Assembly: GCA_964461435.1 (NCBI GenBank) | Contig: CAYWUI010000015.1 | Location: 132-64,131, forward strand | Origin: an uncultured Bacteroidales bacterium | Lineage (GTDB): Bacteria; Bacteroidota; Bacteroidia; Bacteroidales; UBA10428 | Direction: 5' to 3' | Length of the DNA stretch: 64,000 nt | Shown here: positions 8,435-64,000 of the stretch, piece after piece | Layout: each line of letters starts with the position of its first letter | How positions within the stretch are numbered: position 1 is the stretch's first letter | The notes under the pieces: model-generated | Seen by the model: the letters and a program-made list of their open reading frames with translations, nothing else | What the model was told of the DNA's origin: nothing | Databases searched by the model: none | Program-made: the position numbers and the translations under genes

Positions 8435-9451
8435 ATGATTCGTACCGGAATAATCGGACTTGGTAAAATGGGGCTGTCGCACTGTTCAATACTGGGAGCT
8501 CATCCCGAAGTTGATTTGGTTGCTGCCTGTGATACTTCAGGTCTTATTTTAGAAGCAATGAGCAAATATTCGCCTATAAAAGTCTATACCGACTACAAAA
8601 AAATGATAGGTGAAAATGAGCTCAATTGCGTATTTGTTGCCACGCCCACCAAATATCATGCTGAAATGGTAATTTACAGTCTTGAAAACAATCTGCATGT
8701 TTTCTGTGAAAAACCTTTTAGTCTGCATATTAATGATGGGGAAAAAATGGTGAGGCTTGCCAAAGAAAAAAAACGCATAACCCAGGTAGGTTATCATAAC
8801 AGGTTTTTAGGAACTTTTAATGAAATTAAAAGACTAATAGAATTCCAGGTTCTCGGAGATATCTATCATTTTTTGGGAGAGGCGTATGGTCCTGTGGTCT
8901 TAAAGAAAAAAGGAGGGACATGGCGTTCTGAGACTTCCGAAGGAGGAGGGTGCTTATTTGACTATGCCTCGCATGTGATTAACCTTATTAATTATATTTT
9001 GGGTAATATTACGAATGCAGAAGGTACCTTATTAAAAAAAATATATTCAAAAAGTGTTGAAGATGCGGTTTATTCAACCTTATTCCTTAAAAACGGACTG
9101 AGTGGTATTTTATCTGTTAACTGGAGTGACGAAACATATAGAAAAATGTCAACGCAAATAACTGTCATGGGAACCGAAGGTAAAATTATTTCAGATGCAC
9201 AGGAATTAAGAATCTATCTGAAAAAGGAGAATAAAAAACTTAAACTTGAGAAGGGATGGACAATAAAGTATGTTACTGATTTAACCGCTCCGGTTAATTT
9301 CTATTTAAGAGGGGAGGAATATTCCGCACAGATAGACTATTTTATAAATTGCATTAAGGAAAATGAATTAAACAACAGAAGTTCATTTGAATCAGCGCTG
9401 CAAACCGATTATGTAATTGAACTTTTAAAGAAAGATGCTGAAAGGAGGTAA
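8435..9451 (+). CDS. Gfo/Idh/MocA family oxidoreductase
   Basis: GIIGLGKMG, HVFCEKP, QVGYHNRF and GGCLFDYASH. Confidence 0.9.
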   Translation: MIRTGIIGLGKMGLSHCSILGAHPEVDLVAACDTSGLILEAMSKYSPIKVYTDYKKMIGENELNCVFVATPTKYHAEMVIYSLENNLHVFCEKPFSLHINDGEKMVRLAKEKKRITQVGYHNRFLGTFNEIKRLIEFQVLGDIYHFLGEAYGPVVLKKKGGTWRSETSEGGGCLFDYASHVINLINYILGNITNAEGTLLKKIYSKSVEDAVYSTLFLKNGLSGILSVNWSDETYRKMSTQITVMGTEGKIISDAQELRIYLKKENKKLKLEKGWTIKYVTDLTAPVNFYLRGEEYSAQIDYFINCIKENELNNRSSFESALQTDYVIELLKKDAERR

Positions 9452-9455
9452 TATT

Positions 9456-10313
9456 ATGGATAGAATATTATTTGGTGACAACCAGTTTTTTGCAGTAAAT
9501 CACTTGTCTGATGAAAAATCAAGGGCACAATCGATAAGATTTAAAGATAACAAGGCTATTATTGATGTACTTGATACGGCTATTGAACTGGGGATTATGA
9601 CTTTTATGTGCACCACCCATGATCGCATTGCAGATATCTGTAAACATATACGTGCAAATAATACAAGGTATAAAGATTTTAAAATCTATCCTTGTATGCC
9701 TTATGCCCATAAATATGCTAATGCTGTGACAGAATTGGGAATATTAGGAACACTAAAAGCTTATTTGCCCGGTAATATTTTCAGCACTCTGGCCAAAGGA
9801 GGAATAGCTTTTGCCAAAAAGGATTTTATCTCCATGATGGAATTACTGGTTGATGTAGAGATGAAAATGTTCAAAGGTATAAATACTCCCGTAATCTTCA
9901 TCCAGAATGTGGTAACAGATTTAATTCTGGGCCTGGGAATGAAGGAATTTTTTATTGCGTTTAATAATTATATTAAAAATAAATATAATGCTGAAGCTGG
10001 TTACATAACAATGAATATGCCCATGCTACTTGATACGCTGGAAAGTTGTGGATTGAAAAATCCTATTATCTGCAGTTCAATTAATAAAATTGGTTTCAGA
10101 ATGTCGGGAGGCATTAAACTCTATGAAAAAACAATCAGGGAAAAAAAAATCAGGCCAATTGCAATGCAGGTATTGGCAGCCGGGGCTATACCTCCGGCAG
10201 AGGCATTTGAATATGTTTGCAGGCAAAAAAATATTGAATCAATACTTTTTGGTGCGTCATCCAGAGCACATATTAAACAATCAAGAGATTACATATCAAT
10301 GTATGGCAATTGA
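9456..10313 (+). CDS. Conserved hypothetical protein (possible aldo-keto-reductase-like barrel)
   Basis: MDRILFGDNQFF...AMQVLAAGAI...SILFGAS. ATG 9456 follows GAAAGGAGG. Confidence 0.55.
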   Translation: MDRILFGDNQFFAVNHLSDEKSRAQSIRFKDNKAIIDVLDTAIELGIMTFMCTTHDRIADICKHIRANNTRYKDFKIYPCMPYAHKYANAVTELGILGTLKAYLPGNIFSTLAKGGIAFAKKDFISMMELLVDVEMKMFKGINTPVIFIQNVVTDLILGLGMKEFFIAFNNYIKNKYNAEAGYITMNMPMLLDTLESCGLKNPIICSSINKIGFRMSGGIKLYEKTIREKKIRPIAMQVLAAGAIPPAEAFEYVCRQKNIESILFGASSRAHIKQSRDYISMYGN

Positions 10314-58755: not shown

Positions 58756-59001
58756 AATATAGTTATGTGGATTCCTGAAGAAAAAATTCTGTTCGGCGGA
58801 TGTATGGTAAGAGCCTTATCTTCAACTACGCCTGGGAATATTAGTGATACTGACATGGACAGCTGGCCCTCAACAATAGGGAAGATTATAGGCAGGTTCG
58901 GACATGCCCTTATAGTTGTTCCGGTGCACGGTGTTTACGGGGGACCGGAGCTTCTGACACATACATTAAACCTGGTTAAGCAGTTTACAGAAGATCAATA
59001 A
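58756..59001 (+). pseudogene. C-terminal remnant of a subclass B1 metallo-beta-lactamase
   Basis: NIVMWIPEEKILFGGCMV...GN...WP.TI...VVPVHG..GG.ELLTHT. In-frame TAA at 58750; no HxHxD N-half upstream. Confidence 0.75.
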
Positions 59002-59048
59002 GGCCTGTCATTTAATCTGTCAGTAAATCCATTTTAGTTTTCAACTAT

Positions 59049-59564
59049 TTATAAATTTATGTTTTTAAACATTTCTTTTATGATACATGCCGGATTGCAT
59101 AAAAGCATAGGTACTTCTTTCTTATACTTCCTGTATTCATCTCCAAACTTTTCCAGGCATTCTTTTTCTTCAATGAATATTACAAAAATTAATACCCATA
59201 GCCATTGGCTAATTATGATTATTAAGAATGTTATCGGGTATCCTACCAGTAATCCCAGGAAGGTCATAAATAATCCTACTCCCAGATGATGCGGATGCCT
59301 TACACATTTATATACATTTCTTATAATAAGTTTGGTAGACCATCCCCAAAGCTCACATTCACCATACATCCTTAATAATTTGCCGGTTCTTTTTAAAAGG
59401 AAATGTGCAAGGAACATTCCCGTAAATCCGGTTATTCTGACATAAACAGGAAAATTCCTTGTTCCTGAATAAATCAAATCCAACAATAATCCAATAATAA
59501 TACTAATCATGGTAAGAGATATCCATATAATCAATCTTTTACGGCATTTGCTGCATATTGCCAT
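59049..59564 (-). CDS. PEMT/ICMT-family membrane methyltransferase
   Basis: TM helices, YKCVRHP..LG and EE..C.EKFG.EY..YKK.VP. Confidence 0.75.
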   Translation of the reverse strand: MAICSKCRKRLIIWISLTMISIIIGLLLDLIYSGTRNFPVYVRITGFTGMFLAHFLLKRTGKLLRMYGECELWGWSTKLIIRNVYKCVRHPHHLGVGLFMTFLGLLVGYPITFLIIIISQWLWVLIFVIFIEEKECLEKFGDEYRKYKKEVPMLLCNPACIIKEMFKNINL

Positions 59565-59680
59565 TTCACTGTCCTTTAATTATATTATAAACATAAAGAT
59601 TATTAATGATAAAATTATATTATGTAATATCACGACAAGTCAGTCTTAAGGCATACTTTTTCTTATTTATAATATTACAT

Positions 59681-59863
59681 TCTGCAATTGAGCTGAAAGG
59701 AAGTACAGGGGAACTTGATTTGTATGGAAATCCCCGCAAGTATATCAGGATTATGGATAAAGAAAGTGCGTACAAAGAATATAAAAGATGCGGAACCAGG
59801 ATTATAAAAGTGAATATTCCTGGTTCCTCAACATATTTTAGTCCTGCATGTCAGAAGATTTGA
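59681..59863 (+). pseudogene. C-terminal remnant of an Fpg/Nei-family DNA glycosylase (degenerate Zn finger)
   Basis: AIELKG..ELDLYGNP.KY..IMDK...KEYKRCGTRIIK.....TYFSPACQK; two of four Zn-finger Cys are lost. Confidence 0.6.
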
Positions 59864-59892
59864 AGATTATTTGTTTTAAAAACTGATTCCTA

Positions 59893-60405
59893 TTACAACT
59901 TCAGTTTCTTTAAATCTTCCTTCATTCTTTGAATATCATTGATCCAGTCTTCAATATCCTGCTCATGCTCAAGCTCTTCATTCAGTATTGTAGTGGCCAT
60001 CTGGTGTGTAGCATGATCCTTGCCCGATGTATAGTTCGCTATATCTTCATATCTTTGTATAGCACACCTTTCCCCGTTCAGATTCTGGTTAAGGATAGCT
60101 TCAACATAAGGATCTGTGGGTGCATCATAATCACACCTGCTTAACTTAGTCCACTCCGAAGGATTTAAAACAGGTGTGCCCCCCAGCTGGATAATCCTGT
60201 TAACAACCATAACGGCATGGTTTAACTCCTGGTCGGCATGAACCAGCAGCTCGGGCTCAATCTCACTCCGCATGGGTCCTTCCATGACCCTCGCTCCTAC
60301 CCAGTACTGGTAGTAAGCAAGCCATTCTTCCGACAAGGCCGCATTAAGCATCTTAATCAGCTCTTTTACATCGACTTTTAAAATTTCAATACCATGTTTT
60401 CCCAT
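59893..60405 (-). CDS. DpsL / ferritin-like DNA protection protein
   Basis: ALSEEWLAYYQY, H..QE..HA, RIIQLGG, GERCAI and EELEHE; Cys pair present. Confidence 0.88.
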   Translation of the reverse strand: MGKHGIEILKVDVKELIKMLNAALSEEWLAYYQYWVGARVMEGPMRSEIEPELLVHADQELNHAVMVVNRIIQLGGTPVLNPSEWTKLSRCDYDAPTDPYVEAILNQNLNGERCAIQRYEDIANYTSGKDHATHQMATTILNEELEHEQDIEDWINDIQRMKEDLKKLKL

Positions 60406-60534
60406 ATTTTAAATTTTTAATGTTATTATTATTTATAAAGATATGTAATTATTTAAAAATTTTGGTAAAATAAAAGCCAATTGAATTTTATATATTTCTA
60501 AATTGTTTATTTTTGAAATATTGTTATAAGTGTT

Positions 60535-60915
60535 ATGCAATATTTCCGCAAATACTCCAAATATATCCTGATACTGCTTTTCCCGTTTATATGCTGGTAT
60601 TTTATTAACTCATTTATTAACGGGCATTATCATAAACTAAGCAACGGGGAAATTATTTATCATTGCCATCCATTCAAACATAATAAAAATAATACTTCTC
60701 CTTTTGAAGACCATCATCATGCAAAATCTGAATTCTTTATTCTTGCCCAAATTTCAAATCCTGTATTTTTATTATTAGTCATTCTTATATTAATAGGTCA
60801 GTTCATCCATTCATGCCATGAAATAATAATTTCCAGAAATTTATATTTTTTATTAAGAAGTTACTTCTATAATAAAAATTATAGAAGCCCGCCTGTTCCT
60901 GACTATCTTCGATAG
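60535..60915 (+). CDS. His-rich membrane leader ORF ending in RSPP, upstream of a TonB receptor
   Basis: Hydrophobic N-terminus, HYH...HCHPF...HHH, second hydrophobic segment and C-terminal YRSPPVP. Confidence 0.7.
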   Translation: MQYFRKYSKYILILLFPFICWYFINSFINGHYHKLSNGEIIYHCHPFKHNKNNTSPFEDHHHAKSEFFILAQISNPVFLLLVILILIGQFIHSCHEIIISRNLYFLLRSYFYNKNYRSPPVPDYLR

Positions 60916-60941
60916 TAGCAGTTACTTTTATTATTTAAACC

Positions 60942-60978
60942 TCCGGGTATCGTAAAAAATTATACCTGGATATTTTCT
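60942..60978 (+). promoter_or_regulatory. Stem-loop between the leader ORF and the receptor gene
   Basis: TCCGGGTAT-N11-ATACCTGGA (one G:U pair) followed by TATTTTCT. Confidence 0.5.
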
Positions 60979-61026
60979 ATAAGCAATTTACACTTATATA
61001 AACTCTTTCTAAAAATATATTCTCTC

Positions 61027-63435
61027 ATGAAAAATATCATATCCATATTAGCTATTAACTTATTTCTGTTTCTTAGCATAACTGCAATATCACAAGTAAA
61101 AACAAATGCTATTTTATCTGGAAATGTAAAATCAGGCGGAAAACATATTCCTTTTGTAAATATTATTATAAAAGGTACGAATATAGGAACCATAACAGAT
61201 GCAACCGGGCATTATAAACTGGCAAATCTGCCAACAGGAAAAGTTACTGTAATTGCACAGGCACTAGGTTATAAAACCAGGGAGGAAGAAGTTGAAATGA
61301 AAACGGGGCAGGTAACAGAGCTGTTTTTTGAATTGGAAGTAGATGTTCTGCAACTGGAACAAGTAGTTGTTACAGGAACAATGACAAAACACCATATAAA
61401 AGATGTGCCGGTTAGAACAGAAGTAATTACTTCAAAGGAAATTGAAACAAAAAATGCATATAATCTCTTCCAGGCTTTGGAAGGCACGCCAGGTATAAGG
61501 GTAGAACAACAATGCCAGTTTTGTAATTTTACAATGATCAGGATGCAGGGATTAGGAGCTGAACATACACAGGTCTTAATAAATGGACAGCCTTTGTATT
61601 CAAGTTTGGCTGCGGTTTATGGATTACAGCAAATAGGCACAATAGATATCGACAGGATAGAAGTAGTTAAAGGAGCCGGCTCGGCTCTTTATGGAAGCAG
61701 TGCTGTTGCAGGAGCAATAAATATTATTACCAAAGAGCCCTCATTTGAACCATCGATAAAAGCAAGCTTACAATTCGGAAAGTATAATACAAACAAATAT
61801 GATATTTCATCTTCAATCAGAAATGAAAATGGAAATACAGGACTGAGTGTTTTTGCTCAAAAGCTAACGGGCAATGTAATTGATGAAACTTCTGACGGGA
61901 TGACCCCGGATGATGTTAAAAAGAAAGACGGTATTTCCGACAGGGTAGCTACTAATTTGAATAATGCCGGATTTTGCTTATATATGAGGGATATATTTCT
62001 AAATAATGATAAATTAATTATCAGGGGAAGATATTTATATGAAAAAAGACAGGGCGGCATTTTAGAGGATGATTATTATAAGAATCCTTTTACAGATGGT
62101 ACCGAATGCATTACTACCGAAAGGTATGAATCGGAACTTTCATACAATAAAAATTTTAAAAATAATTCTGATCTTAACCTCTCCCTGGCTTATGTAAATC
62201 ATAAACGCGATGCCACAAATGATTCATACCTTGTAGATTATATGGAAATACATAATGATAGTTTGCCTGATTTGAGAAATATGAGGCCCTATCTTGCGGG
62301 TGAAAACTCTTTAACTGTTACATTAACTTATGGAATAGGTATAAAAAATCATCATTTACTTGTTGGTGCACAGAGCTATTATAATAAACTTGAGGAATCA
62401 GGTATGTATGTTGTTGTAAATGCCGGGTCTGATTATTCAGGTGAATCTTACAGATCGGTTAGTAATAAAGCGGCATCGGAATTTGGAACTTTTCTCCAGG
62501 ATGAATGGTTAATAACCAAAAAATTTATACTTGTTCCGGGTGCCAGATTGGATATCCATAATTCAGAGGAAGAATATAAGGCAGACAGACAGGTTTTTGA
62601 GACTACCTTGTTCCCTAAAACAAAATTCGATGAAACGAGCATAAATCCTAGAATTGCTGCAAAATATGAACTTTCGGAAAAAATTACTTTACGTATAAAT
62701 ACGGGAACTGGCTTCCGTGCACCATATGGTTTCTCAGAAGATTTACATTTATGCAGTGGTTCTCCCCGTATATGGAAATCATCCGGTTTGAAACCGGAAA
62801 CGTCGATAAGCTATAATTTTTCTGCTGATTATTATGGTAAGAAGATTAGAATTAGTACTAATATTTTTCGAACAGACTTAAAAGACAATATTGCTTTTGT
62901 TAATGCAGAAGAAAATATAAGTGCCATGGGTTATGACTATCAGTGGGAAAATATTGATGATGCATTTGTGCAAGGGATAGAGTTATCATTTATGGCTGAA
63001 CTGATCAATGATCTGGAATCAGGTGTTGATTTTACTTACAATCAGGGTAAATATGACAATGTGCGTGAAGACTGGAAAGAAACACCCTATGCAGAAAATA
63101 GCAGGTATATTTCACGTTTCCCTATGACAACAGCAAGTATAAAAATAGAGTATAGTCCGAAAAACTGGAGTTTCGTATTAGCAGGAAATTACCAGGGCAA
63201 AATGTATATCGATTATTTTGGAGATGTAACCCGCAAGATAAAGGAAACATCTCCTTTTATGCTTTTTAATTTAAGGGTTTCGAAAAAACTTAACATATTT
63301 AAATTATATGCAGGAGCAGATAACATTTTCAATCATATTCAGGATGAGAAGCATACTGACGATGCAGCATTTATGTATGCCCCGGTTTATGGTACCATGT
63401 ATTATGGAGGAATTGCAGTTGATTTAACAAAATGA
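61027..63435 (+). CDS. TonB-dependent receptor with carboxypeptidase-like N-domain
   Basis: GTITDATGHY, EQVVVTGT, plug CQFC, IDRIEVVKGAGSALYGSSAVAGAINIITK and AGADNIFN. Confidence 0.92.
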   Translation: MKNIISILAINLFLFLSITAISQVKTNAILSGNVKSGGKHIPFVNIIIKGTNIGTITDATGHYKLANLPTGKVTVIAQALGYKTREEEVEMKTGQVTELFFELEVDVLQLEQVVVTGTMTKHHIKDVPVRTEVITSKEIETKNAYNLFQALEGTPGIRVEQQCQFCNFTMIRMQGLGAEHTQVLINGQPLYSSLAAVYGLQQIGTIDIDRIEVVKGAGSALYGSSAVAGAINIITKEPSFEPSIKASLQFGKYNTNKYDISSSIRNENGNTGLSVFAQKLTGNVIDETSDGMTPDDVKKKDGISDRVATNLNNAGFCLYMRDIFLNNDKLIIRGRYLYEKRQGGILEDDYYKNPFTDGTECITTERYESELSYNKNFKNNSDLNLSLAYVNHKRDATNDSYLVDYMEIHNDSLPDLRNMRPYLAGENSLTVTLTYGIGIKNHHLLVGAQSYYNKLEESGMYVVVNAGSDYSGESYRSVSNKAASEFGTFLQDEWLITKKFILVPGARLDIHNSEEEYKADRQVFETTLFPKTKFDETSINPRIAAKYELSEKITLRINTGTGFRAPYGFSEDLHLCSGSPRIWKSSGLKPETSISYNFSADYYGKKIRISTNIFRTDLKDNIAFVNAEENISAMGYDYQWENIDDAFVQGIELSFMAELINDLESGVDFTYNQGKYDNVREDWKETPYAENSRYISRFPMTTASIKIEYSPKNWSFVLAGNYQGKMYIDYFGDVTRKIKETSPFMLFNLRVSKKLNIFKLYAGADNIFNHIQDEKHTDDAAFMYAPVYGTMYYGGIAVDLTK

Positions 63436-63561: not shown

Positions 63562-64000
63562 ATGAAGAAACTCTCTAATATAGTCATCTTATTCTTAATA
63601 AGCTATTCAATTTTTGCACAGAATCATTTAACAGGTGTTATTACCGATAAAGTTACCGGCATGCCGTTAACGGGTGCAGAAATTTACCTGTTGGACCAGA
63701 ATACAGGCACAATTTCAAATGATAAAGGTGAATATAAACTCAATAACCTGCCTAATGGCGAATTAAAAGTTCAATATTCTTATTTAAGTTATAAAACAGT
63801 AGTGAAGACTATTTTTATGAAAAATAATGATCAAAACATAAATATATCGCTTGAGCCAACCGTTATTCATACGCAGGAAGTTGTAATTTCAGGAGGCAGC
63901 ATTTCCTCTCAGCATGAAAATGCCATAAAAATTGAAACAATAAACGCCAAAGAAATTAATTCGGTCGGATCACCCGATTTCATGGAAACATTGGCTTCAG
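63562..64000 (+). CDS. Second TonB-dependent receptor (3'-truncated by window edge)
   Basis: Manual translation MKKLSNIVILFLISYSIFAQ...TGMPLTGAEIY...GTISNDKGEY...QEVVISG; open to window end. Confidence 0.8.
   Translation, partial: MKKLSNIVILFLISYSIFAQNHLTGVITDKVTGMPLTGAEIYLLDQNTGTISNDKGEYKLNNLPNGELKVQYSYLSYKTVVKTIFMKNNDQNINISLEPTVIHTQEVVISGGSISSQHENAIKIETINAKEINSVGSPDFMETLAS

Follow-up and report, generated by a model that had tools for sequence, protein, structure and literature searches.

A His-rich upstream reading frame with a C-terminal Arg-Ser-Pro-Pro motif is a candidate metal-responsive arrest leader of a Bacteroidota gene for a TonB-dependent transporter

Does a small His-rich protein encoded directly upstream of a transporter gene act in its own right, or is it a leader whose translation controls the expression of the transporter? 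This question is raised by the last part of a 64,000-nucleotide stretch of DNA from an uncultured Bacteroidales bacterium (contig CAYWUI010000015.1). We refer to this whole 64-kb stretch as the window, and all coordinates given below are positions in it unless they follow the number of another locus; the loci of relatives bear L-numbers (L001, L005 and so on). The open reading frame (ORF) in question, hereafter the leader ORF, starts with ATG, encodes 126 amino acids (aa) and lies on the + strand at 60535..60915, with the ATG of a TonB-dependent transporter (TBDT) gene 111 nt past its stop. A first-pass annotation had described this 126-aa ORF with two hydrophobic stretches, a His cluster and RSPP near the C-terminus, as well as its distance to the receptor gene, and its coordinates proved exact. 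Its core idea was that the ORF is a His-based analogue, in Bacteroidota, of the arrest leader CruR. We have found this to be the best-supported reading, because the RxPP motif and the HxH pairs show little or no variation in the family, a TBDT gene regularly follows and the spacing between His residues and motif is conserved. Judging from the sequence, we would put the probability that the leader ORF is an arrest leader regulating its cargo in response to a metal at roughly 0.6.

The leader ORF can be read as a succession of segments, all on the + strand. The basic residues R5, K6 and K9 precede a first transmembrane helix or signal anchor (TM1, residues 10-28, 60562..60618), assigned by hydrophobicity and by AlphaFold2 (AF2) modelling. 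Residues 29-66 (60619..60732) form the His loop, with the pairs H31xH33, H43xH45-P46 and H60xH62 and the further residues N29, G38, P56 and E66, in columns that are invariant or kept in at least 90% of the family. A second hydrophobic helix (TM2, residues 67-91, 60733..60807), assigned in the same way, leads into a spacer of which the length is kept but the sequence is not (residues 92-116, 60808..60882). The spacer is followed by R117-S-P-P120 (60883..60894), a putative RAPP-like arrest motif according to its family-wide conservation, and by a variable tail of 6 codons with the stop (60895..60915). As a whole, the ORF is thus a candidate RAPP-type, His-triad arrest peptide.

A word-indexed search retrieved 20 relatives with 40-98% identity, every one of them 120-129 aa long. 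The profile search against 1.84 billion cluster representatives returned 1,419 clusters at E<=1e-3, with 554 at E<=1e-10. The named matches were all annotated as "hypothetical protein" and came from Bacteroidales, Prolixibacteraceae, Marinilabilia rubra and unclassified Bacteroidota. Neither Pfam nor NCBIfam models matched the leader ORF or 150 relatives, and nothing matched of the kind of "HYC_CC_PP", which we take to be an NCBIfam family; this lead was dropped. Below threshold, the His loop matched HypB_prefix_2, the NCBIfam model of the His-rich HypB N-terminus, in 57/150 sequences (best E 9.4e-6). This similarity is probably a compositional effect, HypB being a nickel-insertion protein and the match hence also a possible pointer to Ni.

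Column conservation was derived from an alignment of 150 sequences reaching down to ~23% identity. In this alignment, H31, H43, H45, H60, H62, P119 and P120 were invariant, and N25, H33 (99%), G38, P46 and R117 were kept in at least 90% of the sequences. The HxH pairs stood 12 and ~17 residues apart across the family. The first-pass annotation had seen a His/Cys cluster here, which reads H31-Y-H33, H43-C-H45-P46-F and H60-H-H62 in the window, and had proposed a check of whether HxHP is conserved. HxHP and the two further HxH pairs were indeed invariant or nearly so; the Cys part of the cluster did not hold, with C44 being Ala in 66% of the members and CxxC being absent. Because C44 is mostly Ala, the putative sensor signature consists of three HxH pairs and not of a His/Cys cluster. 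For annotation purposes, the family can be written as a transmembrane helix, HxH-12-HxHP-17-HxH, ~54 residues and R[AGS]PP.

The C-terminal motif and its spacing were counted in 220 family sequences. Pro-Pro was present in 220/220, and the two positions preceding it were occupied by R (189), H (27) or K (4) and by A (143), G (55), S (19) or P (3), respectively. Hence, all 220 sequences carry [R/H/K]-[A/G/S/P]-P-P, with a RAPP-like majority, RSPP in ~9% and HAPP- or KAPP-type variants where His (27/220) or Lys (4/220) replaces Arg. The conservation of RSPP in homologs had been named beforehand as the finding on which the proposal would stand or fall: Pro-Pro was invariant, and R[A/G/S] nearly so, down to ~23% identity. 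After Pro-Pro came a tail of unconserved sequence, 1-14 residues long with a median of 3; that of the window has 6. At the motif, the codons of 27 loci comprised all six Arg codons from both families, Ser codons of the AGY and TCN types and all four Pro codons; since such diverse codons encode it, it is the peptide, rather than the RNA, that is under selection. Tetrapeptides of the types R[AGSD]PP, RAGP and H[AG]PP occur 3 times in the six frames of the window, and that of the leader ORF is the one that lies within an ORF with a start codon. The tetrapeptide by itself would not exceed chance, and it is the family-wide invariance that counts.

Besides the motif, its distance to the His residues was conserved. 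Counted from H62, the last His, the Pro predicted to occupy the P site lay at a distance of 57 residues in 134/220 sequences and of 53-59 in 219/220. Within the spacer (residues 92-114), the majority residue had a frequency of 0.20, which is about random, with an occupancy of 0.99 and hardly any insertions or deletions. In more distant relatives, for which the published RAPP/RGPP tables were the source, the distance was 53-58 residues wherever the third HxH could be located. Four of the distant relatives that keep this spacing have no clearly hydrophobic TM2, and the second helix is therefore not universal. As the spacing persists in relatives without a clear TM2, it is the spacing, rather than TM2, that looks constrained.

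We have then considered what lies downstream. In the 25 loci with enough downstream DNA, a TBDT gene was the next same-strand gene in 23, and the flanking genes were otherwise unrelated. The downstream TBDTs were 50-87% identical to that of the window in the close set and 28-31% identical in distant members, and the leader-to-TBDT spacers measured 62-357 nt. In the source tables of PMC12992588, 12 of 13 relatives likewise precede a TonB receptor. A Bacteroidota -7 type promoter motif, TAnnTTTG (TATTTTTG, 60508..60515, +), matches the consensus 27 nt before the leader ATG; the motif was present upstream of the leader in 17/23 loci and within the leader-to-TBDT spacer in 2/22. This placement before the leader and not in the spacer argues for co-transcription of leader and TBDT gene. 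The presumed regulated cargo in the window is the TBDT of 802 aa (61027..63435, +), composed of CarboxypepD_reg (PF13715), Plug (PF07715, E 4.5e-23) and a 22-strand barrel (PF00593, E 2.4e-42). At L020 (CAZDXB010000004.1, 158 kb), a contig titled "uncultured Hyphomicrobiales", a family leader with RAPP is paired with a TBDT 60% identical to that of the window; the contig comes from Bacteroidota and was mis-binned, or else it reflects horizontal transfer.

The two loci without a TBDT gene (L007=L011, and L016) carry a porin-like protein and a ZnuA/AztC-type ABC importer downstream instead. The first gene of this alternative cargo encodes 431 aa with a signal peptide, beta-barrel-like by reading of the translation and with no match in Pfam or NCBIfam, and the others encode two ABC-3 permeases and a ZnuA-fold binding protein, for which the zinc protein AztC is the best match, though below threshold. 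Two pairs of alleles with different cargo at a common site could be compared, namely the window (59024-60600) with L007 (=L011) and L008 (6766-6975) with L031/L016. The alleles were 97-100% identical from a divergent gene for a Dps-like protein through the promoter and into the leader, over its first 17-26 codons, and identity then dropped abruptly to 50-70%; past its cargo, L016 rejoins the hemerythrin flank of L008. Since the recombination breakpoints of two lineages fall within the TM1 codons, sensor, arrest site and cargo have been swapped as one unit. In the published tables, the entry NLE36158.1 combines the His-loop domain and RAPP at the head of an operon that starts with a resistance-nodulation-division (RND) efflux adaptor, and matches the family profile with 97.3% in hhalign. 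As it precedes two kinds of importer and an exporter, the His-loop domain looks like a sensor and not like a TBDT-specific subunit.

The family shares the motif, its C-terminal position, the N-terminal anchor and the position upstream of a cargo with the RAPP-type arrest peptides, and on all these sequence-level criteria it is a candidate member of that class. According to passages of PMC12992588, no tetrapeptide is depleted more strongly than RAPP and RGPP in the proteomes of many phyla, including Bacteroidota, and RSPP, too, ranks among the most depleted in bacteria. A CruR toeprint in the same source places the stall with both RAPP Pro codons in the P and A sites. Based on this toeprint, a ribosome stalled on the leader ORF would hold P119 in its P site, with the codon for P120 in the A site.

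A number of points weigh against an arrest leader. One concerns the motif itself. RSPP permits arrest in ApdA/ApdP mutants, as stated in parts of PMC12992588, but the mutagenesis grades it as only "partially permissive", and on ribosomes other than those of Bacteroidota. A second point is the predicted fold. The AF2 model comprised a helix at residues 2-28, a beta-hairpin (30-34/40-44, with a predicted local distance difference test score, pLDDT, above 90) and helices at 64-73 and 76-91. Residues 1-91 were confident (pLDDT ~93), which makes a stable mature membrane protein plausible, and residues 92-126 were predicted as coil with pLDDT of 71-79.

The ORF could accordingly encode a stable two-helix metal-binding protein of the inner membrane, for instance a chaperone or acceptor with a His site facing the periplasm, in which RxPP would be a structural or turnover motif. 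The confident helical hairpin and beta-hairpin of residues 1-91, with a mean pLDDT of 87.7, would suit such a protein, as would the tight synteny with metal transporters, and the six conserved His residues together with N25, G38, P46, P56 and E66 resemble a real metal site. A protein of this kind would, however, leave unexplained an invariant and proteome-depleted RxPP 1-14 residues from the C terminus, as well as a cytoplasmic spacer of 25 residues with fixed length and unconserved sequence. Moreover, the His domain precedes uptake as well as efflux cargo and occurs in relatives without TM2, and a Foldseek search of the PDB with the AF2 model found no structural relative (best E 2.3). We regard this explanation as unlikely; a role as a stable protein and one as a leader may be compatible.

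Another explanation accepts a pause at RxPP and ascribes it to membrane insertion. The family means of K+R versus D+E were 2.95/0.22 in the N-terminus, 2.95/3.75 in the loop and 4.29/1.39 in the C-terminal segment, the His loop thus being net acidic. This charge distribution supports a predicted topology with the N-terminus inside, the loop outside in the periplasm and the C-terminus inside. TM1 had a mean hydrophobicity of 2.0, and the best 19-residue window of TM2 averaged 2.2 across the family. Because a median of 28 residues separates the end of TM2 from the P-site Pro, the spacer would, at the stall, lie in the exit tunnel; TM2 would be located where the tunnel ends or inside the translocon, and the His loop would be outside. 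This is also the geometry required if the RxPP pause served only targeting or insertion of the leader itself, or tethering of the mRNA at the membrane, with no metal switch involved, and it would be in line with our failure to find a conserved RNA switch downstream. We consider such a pause quite improbable: it gives no role to invariant His triads held at a fixed distance, the spacing persists in relatives without TM2, and the studied analogues CruR and CutF respond to metal.

The remaining points against an arrest leader come from the RNA and from the metal, the identity of which is indicated by indirect evidence. A 9-bp stem-loop, which the first-pass annotation had noted, is present in the 111-nt spacer (60942..60970, +) and is followed by UAUUUUCU. 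It has a dG of -11.7 kcal/mol, a stem with 4 G-C and 1 G-U among its 9 bp and a loop of 11 nt. Its orthologues were confined to a subclade (L005, L040, L041 and L027), where 88.9% of the cells were paired with 3 compensatory pairs. Covariation over the five sequences compared was not significant, being equalled by 34-59/500 shuffles. The L008 lineage, 81% identical, has lost the hairpin by a clean deletion and has a spacer of 68 nt; in the window, the hairpin begins 40 nt past the edge to be expected if a ribosome stalled at Pro119. Given the deletion and this distance, the hairpin is an optional clade-specific element and not the switch of the family.

Most spacers at other loci contain hairpins as well, but these show no relation to one another in sequence or position, and U-tails do not follow them consistently. 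A terminator scan found none, with the hairpin at 60942-60970 failing its criteria, and the 181-nt region folded no better than shuffled sequences (z = -1.21). The TBDT start was unpaired in the predicted fold, and our comparison yielded no conserved RNA element linking the stall site to it. The Rfam covariance models did not match either strand of 59800-61400 at E<=1, leaving no rival riboswitch or other Rfam explanation of the regulation. The spacers had a mild C>G skew (mean 0.11, 19/25 loci), compatible with Rho loading but not discriminating, as an upstream control region was similarly skewed. Just before the TBDT ATG, the block ACACTTATATAAA..CTTT.TAAAAATATAT (60990-61026) is kept throughout the clade, also in sequences that have lost the hairpin. 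This block is probably the A/U-rich region at which translation of the TBDT gene is initiated. An ordinary operon with a hypothetical gene, a chance RSPP, a hairpin that terminates or stabilises and Fur/Zur control at the promoter would agree with the unexceptional hairpin and fold energy, and the divergent promoter common with the Dps-like gene could hold a repressor site, but family-wide RxPP invariance, fixed spacing and synteny cannot be chance and make this explanation highly improbable; a promoter-level regulator may act alongside the leader.

The closest known counterpart of the arrest leader proposed here is CruR of Bordetella pertussis (Bp2923, DUF2946), encoded in the cruR-bfrG(crtA)-bp2921 operon (Roy et al. 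2022, PMC9426467). Both are small exported or membrane-anchored leaders before a TBDT gene, come first in their operon and are followed by a long untranslated spacer, and both hold a metal-ligand motif at a kept distance from a C-terminal R-x-P-P with a short variable tail. For CruR, the spacing between ligands and RAPP has been shown experimentally to matter. The two differ in this spacing (54 intervening residues in our family versus 45 in CruR), in the sensor (three HxH pairs versus CxxC), in the second transmembrane helix of the window's clade, which CruR lacks, in phylum (Bacteroidota versus mainly Proteobacteria) and probably in the metal, which is copper for CruR.

CutF of Rhodobacter capsulatus, a DUF2946-like leader of cutFOG (bioRxiv 10.1101/2025.02.05.636593), follows the same concept of a membrane-spanning nascent chain that senses a periplasmic metal, with a proline motif in the tunnel. 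There, Cu induces a stall that melts a stem-loop over the ribosome-binding site of cutO, and the cargo is a detoxifying oxidase, whereas our family has no conserved stem-loop over the TBDT start, Bacteroidota do not depend on Shine-Dalgarno pairing and the cargo is an importer. We have considered homology to DUF2946 and rejected it: PF11162 matched 0/150 members at E<=0.01, and hhalign against 10 annotated DUF2946 proteins aligned 14 columns around RAPP with a probability of 3.2%. On these comparisons, the resemblance to CruR and CutF is one of functional analogy, not homology. ApdA, ApdP, ApcA and SecM (RAGP) share a C-terminal motif of the R-A/G-P-P type, an N-terminal localisation signal and the position as upstream ORF (uORF) with the family. 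As far as passages of PMC10951233, PMC10987492 and PMC12992588 describe them, they sense Sec/YidC secretion or insertion and control sec/yidC genes, whereas the family combines a His cluster with metal transporters.

We infer the following mechanism as the most likely. The 126-aa ORF would be a cis-acting leader co-transcribed with one or more TBDT genes, the nascent product of which would sense a metal. TM1 would target the nascent chain to the inner membrane, and the 38-residue loop with its three HxH pairs would be displayed on the periplasmic side. The ribosome would stall at R117-S-P-P120, as it does at RAPP, RGPP or RAGP in ApdA, ApdP, SecM and CruR, with ~29 unconserved residues in the tunnel and the His cluster ~57 residues from the peptidyl-transferase centre. 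A divalent metal bound to the His cluster might then alter the folding of the chain or the force that pulls on it, and thereby the duration of the stall.

Coupling to the cargo would depend on whether a stalled or a released ribosome stands at the 3' end of the leader. The likeliest route is that of CruR, in which a stalled ribosome would keep Rho-type termination from occurring early in the long untranslated spacer and so let RNA polymerase read through. Low metal would then lead to stalling and turn the transporter on, and metal would lead to release and turn the importer off; such a CruR-like polarity suits the leader because its cargo is an uptake system. The logic of CutF, where a metal-induced stall would melt a structure hiding the start site, may be considered as an alternative, and it fits less well since no start-hiding structure is conserved in the family.

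The genes around the leader offer some context for these proposals. In the plug of the TBDT, C163-Q-F-C166 (61513..61524, +) is kept in 17/18 leader-associated TBDTs, including those with 28-31% identity. H574 is kept in 17/18 as well, and C576 may also be remarked; the plug CxxC, H574 and C576 may make up a metal site, or a disulfide may form among them. A second TBDT gene, identified by its CarboxypepD_reg N-terminus, follows the first at a distance of 126 nt and is cut off by the end of the window (63562..64000, +). Tandem TBDT pairs are also found in L005, L040 and L041, and in L005 two UbiE-type methyltransferase genes come next. The Dps-like gene, of ferritin fold, lies on the - strand (59893..60405; Pfam Ferritin, sub-threshold NCBIfam DPS), shares a promoter region of 129 nt with the leader ORF and adjoins the leader only in the close clade.

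Several of the neighbouring genes are related to metals. In the window's clade (L008/L041), upstream neighbours encode an AraC regulator, a PEMT-like methyltransferase, a DUF134 protein and a Nitro_FeMo-Co family protein, as well as two CbiA/ParA-Fer4 ATPases. A 78-aa ORF of the window (58765-59001, +) is the 3' remnant of a gene of metallo-beta-lactamase fold. L007 has a counterpart that is 90% identical at the DNA level over 238 nt and is part of a gene encoding 213 aa or more, with a Lactamase_B match, and in the window the 5' part of this gene has been replaced by an opposite-strand Fib_succ_major/SprB-repeat gene. In L001, a CbiX chelatase gene (9266-10156) follows the TBDT gene.

Which metal would be sensed can be approached from ligands, cargo and neighbours. 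The nearest solved relatives of the TBDT were CirA, PfeA and BtuB, with weak E-values, and OprC and ZnuD were not among the structure matches at E <= 0.001, so that no substrate could be assigned to the transporter. In ~25 loci examined, no genes for PepSY_TM, PCuAC, SCO or multicopper oxidase were present. The His-only ligands, the AztC/ZnuA-type alternative cargo and this lack of copper genes favour zinc, which we name tentatively and with chances clearly below even. Fe, Mn, Ni or Co may be sensed instead, given the Dps-like neighbour, the CbiX gene in L001 and the nearness of the TBDT to catecholate-siderophore receptors. The first-pass annotation had preferred Ni/Co/Zn to Cu, and its support lies in the chemistry of His and the ZnuA/AztC-type cargo.

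A "TonB-related" class of RAPP/RGPP uORFs across Gram-negative phyla was set out in a 2025 survey (EMBO J, PMC12992588, Fig. 4), in which, as its passages have it, these uORFs are treated as one class with predicted signal sequences, with lists that cover RAPP and RGPP. Members of our family appear in its source tables as "hypothetical protein", and one of them, WP_132433697.1, matches the family profile at 99.9%. The passages searched in this survey contain no description of a His triad, a fixed spacing, a two-TM layout, RSPP or HAPP members or cassette exchange. A literature search on zinc- or TBDT-related uORFs in Bacteroidota returned nothing relevant, and we found no other paper describing these features. 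The uORF class is therefore already known, and the His-triad Bacteroidota family appears in the tables of the survey without description.

So far, copper is the only metal to which translation arrest has been shown to respond (CruR and CutF), and this in Proteobacteria alone. The family would extend the principle to His-based sensing, probably of zinc, to a phylum that differs from the model organisms in how it initiates translation and regulates at the RNA level, and to no fewer than 1,400 protein clusters now annotated as hypothetical. In the broader form that we propose tentatively, and rate not far short of even odds, Bacteroidota would possess a phylum-wide set of nascent-chain metal sensors of an origin independent of DUF2946, in which an HxH triad ~57 residues from R-x-P-P switches uptake (TBDT or Znu-type) and efflux (RND) operons, in a module exchangeable together with its cargo by recombination within the leader. 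If this broader form is true, it would provide the first non-copper metal sensor among arrest peptides and the first arrest-peptide regulation shown in Bacteroidota. The ~57-residue length would match the ribosome tunnel plus translocon, so that periplasmic Zn or another divalent metal could be read co-translationally. The strict spacing across an unconserved linker would offer a natural ruler for signalling from the ligands to the peptidyl-transferase centre. The leader would also mark a set of TBDTs with a conserved plug CxxC as metal-regulated, and would give annotators a simple signature by which to recognise them.

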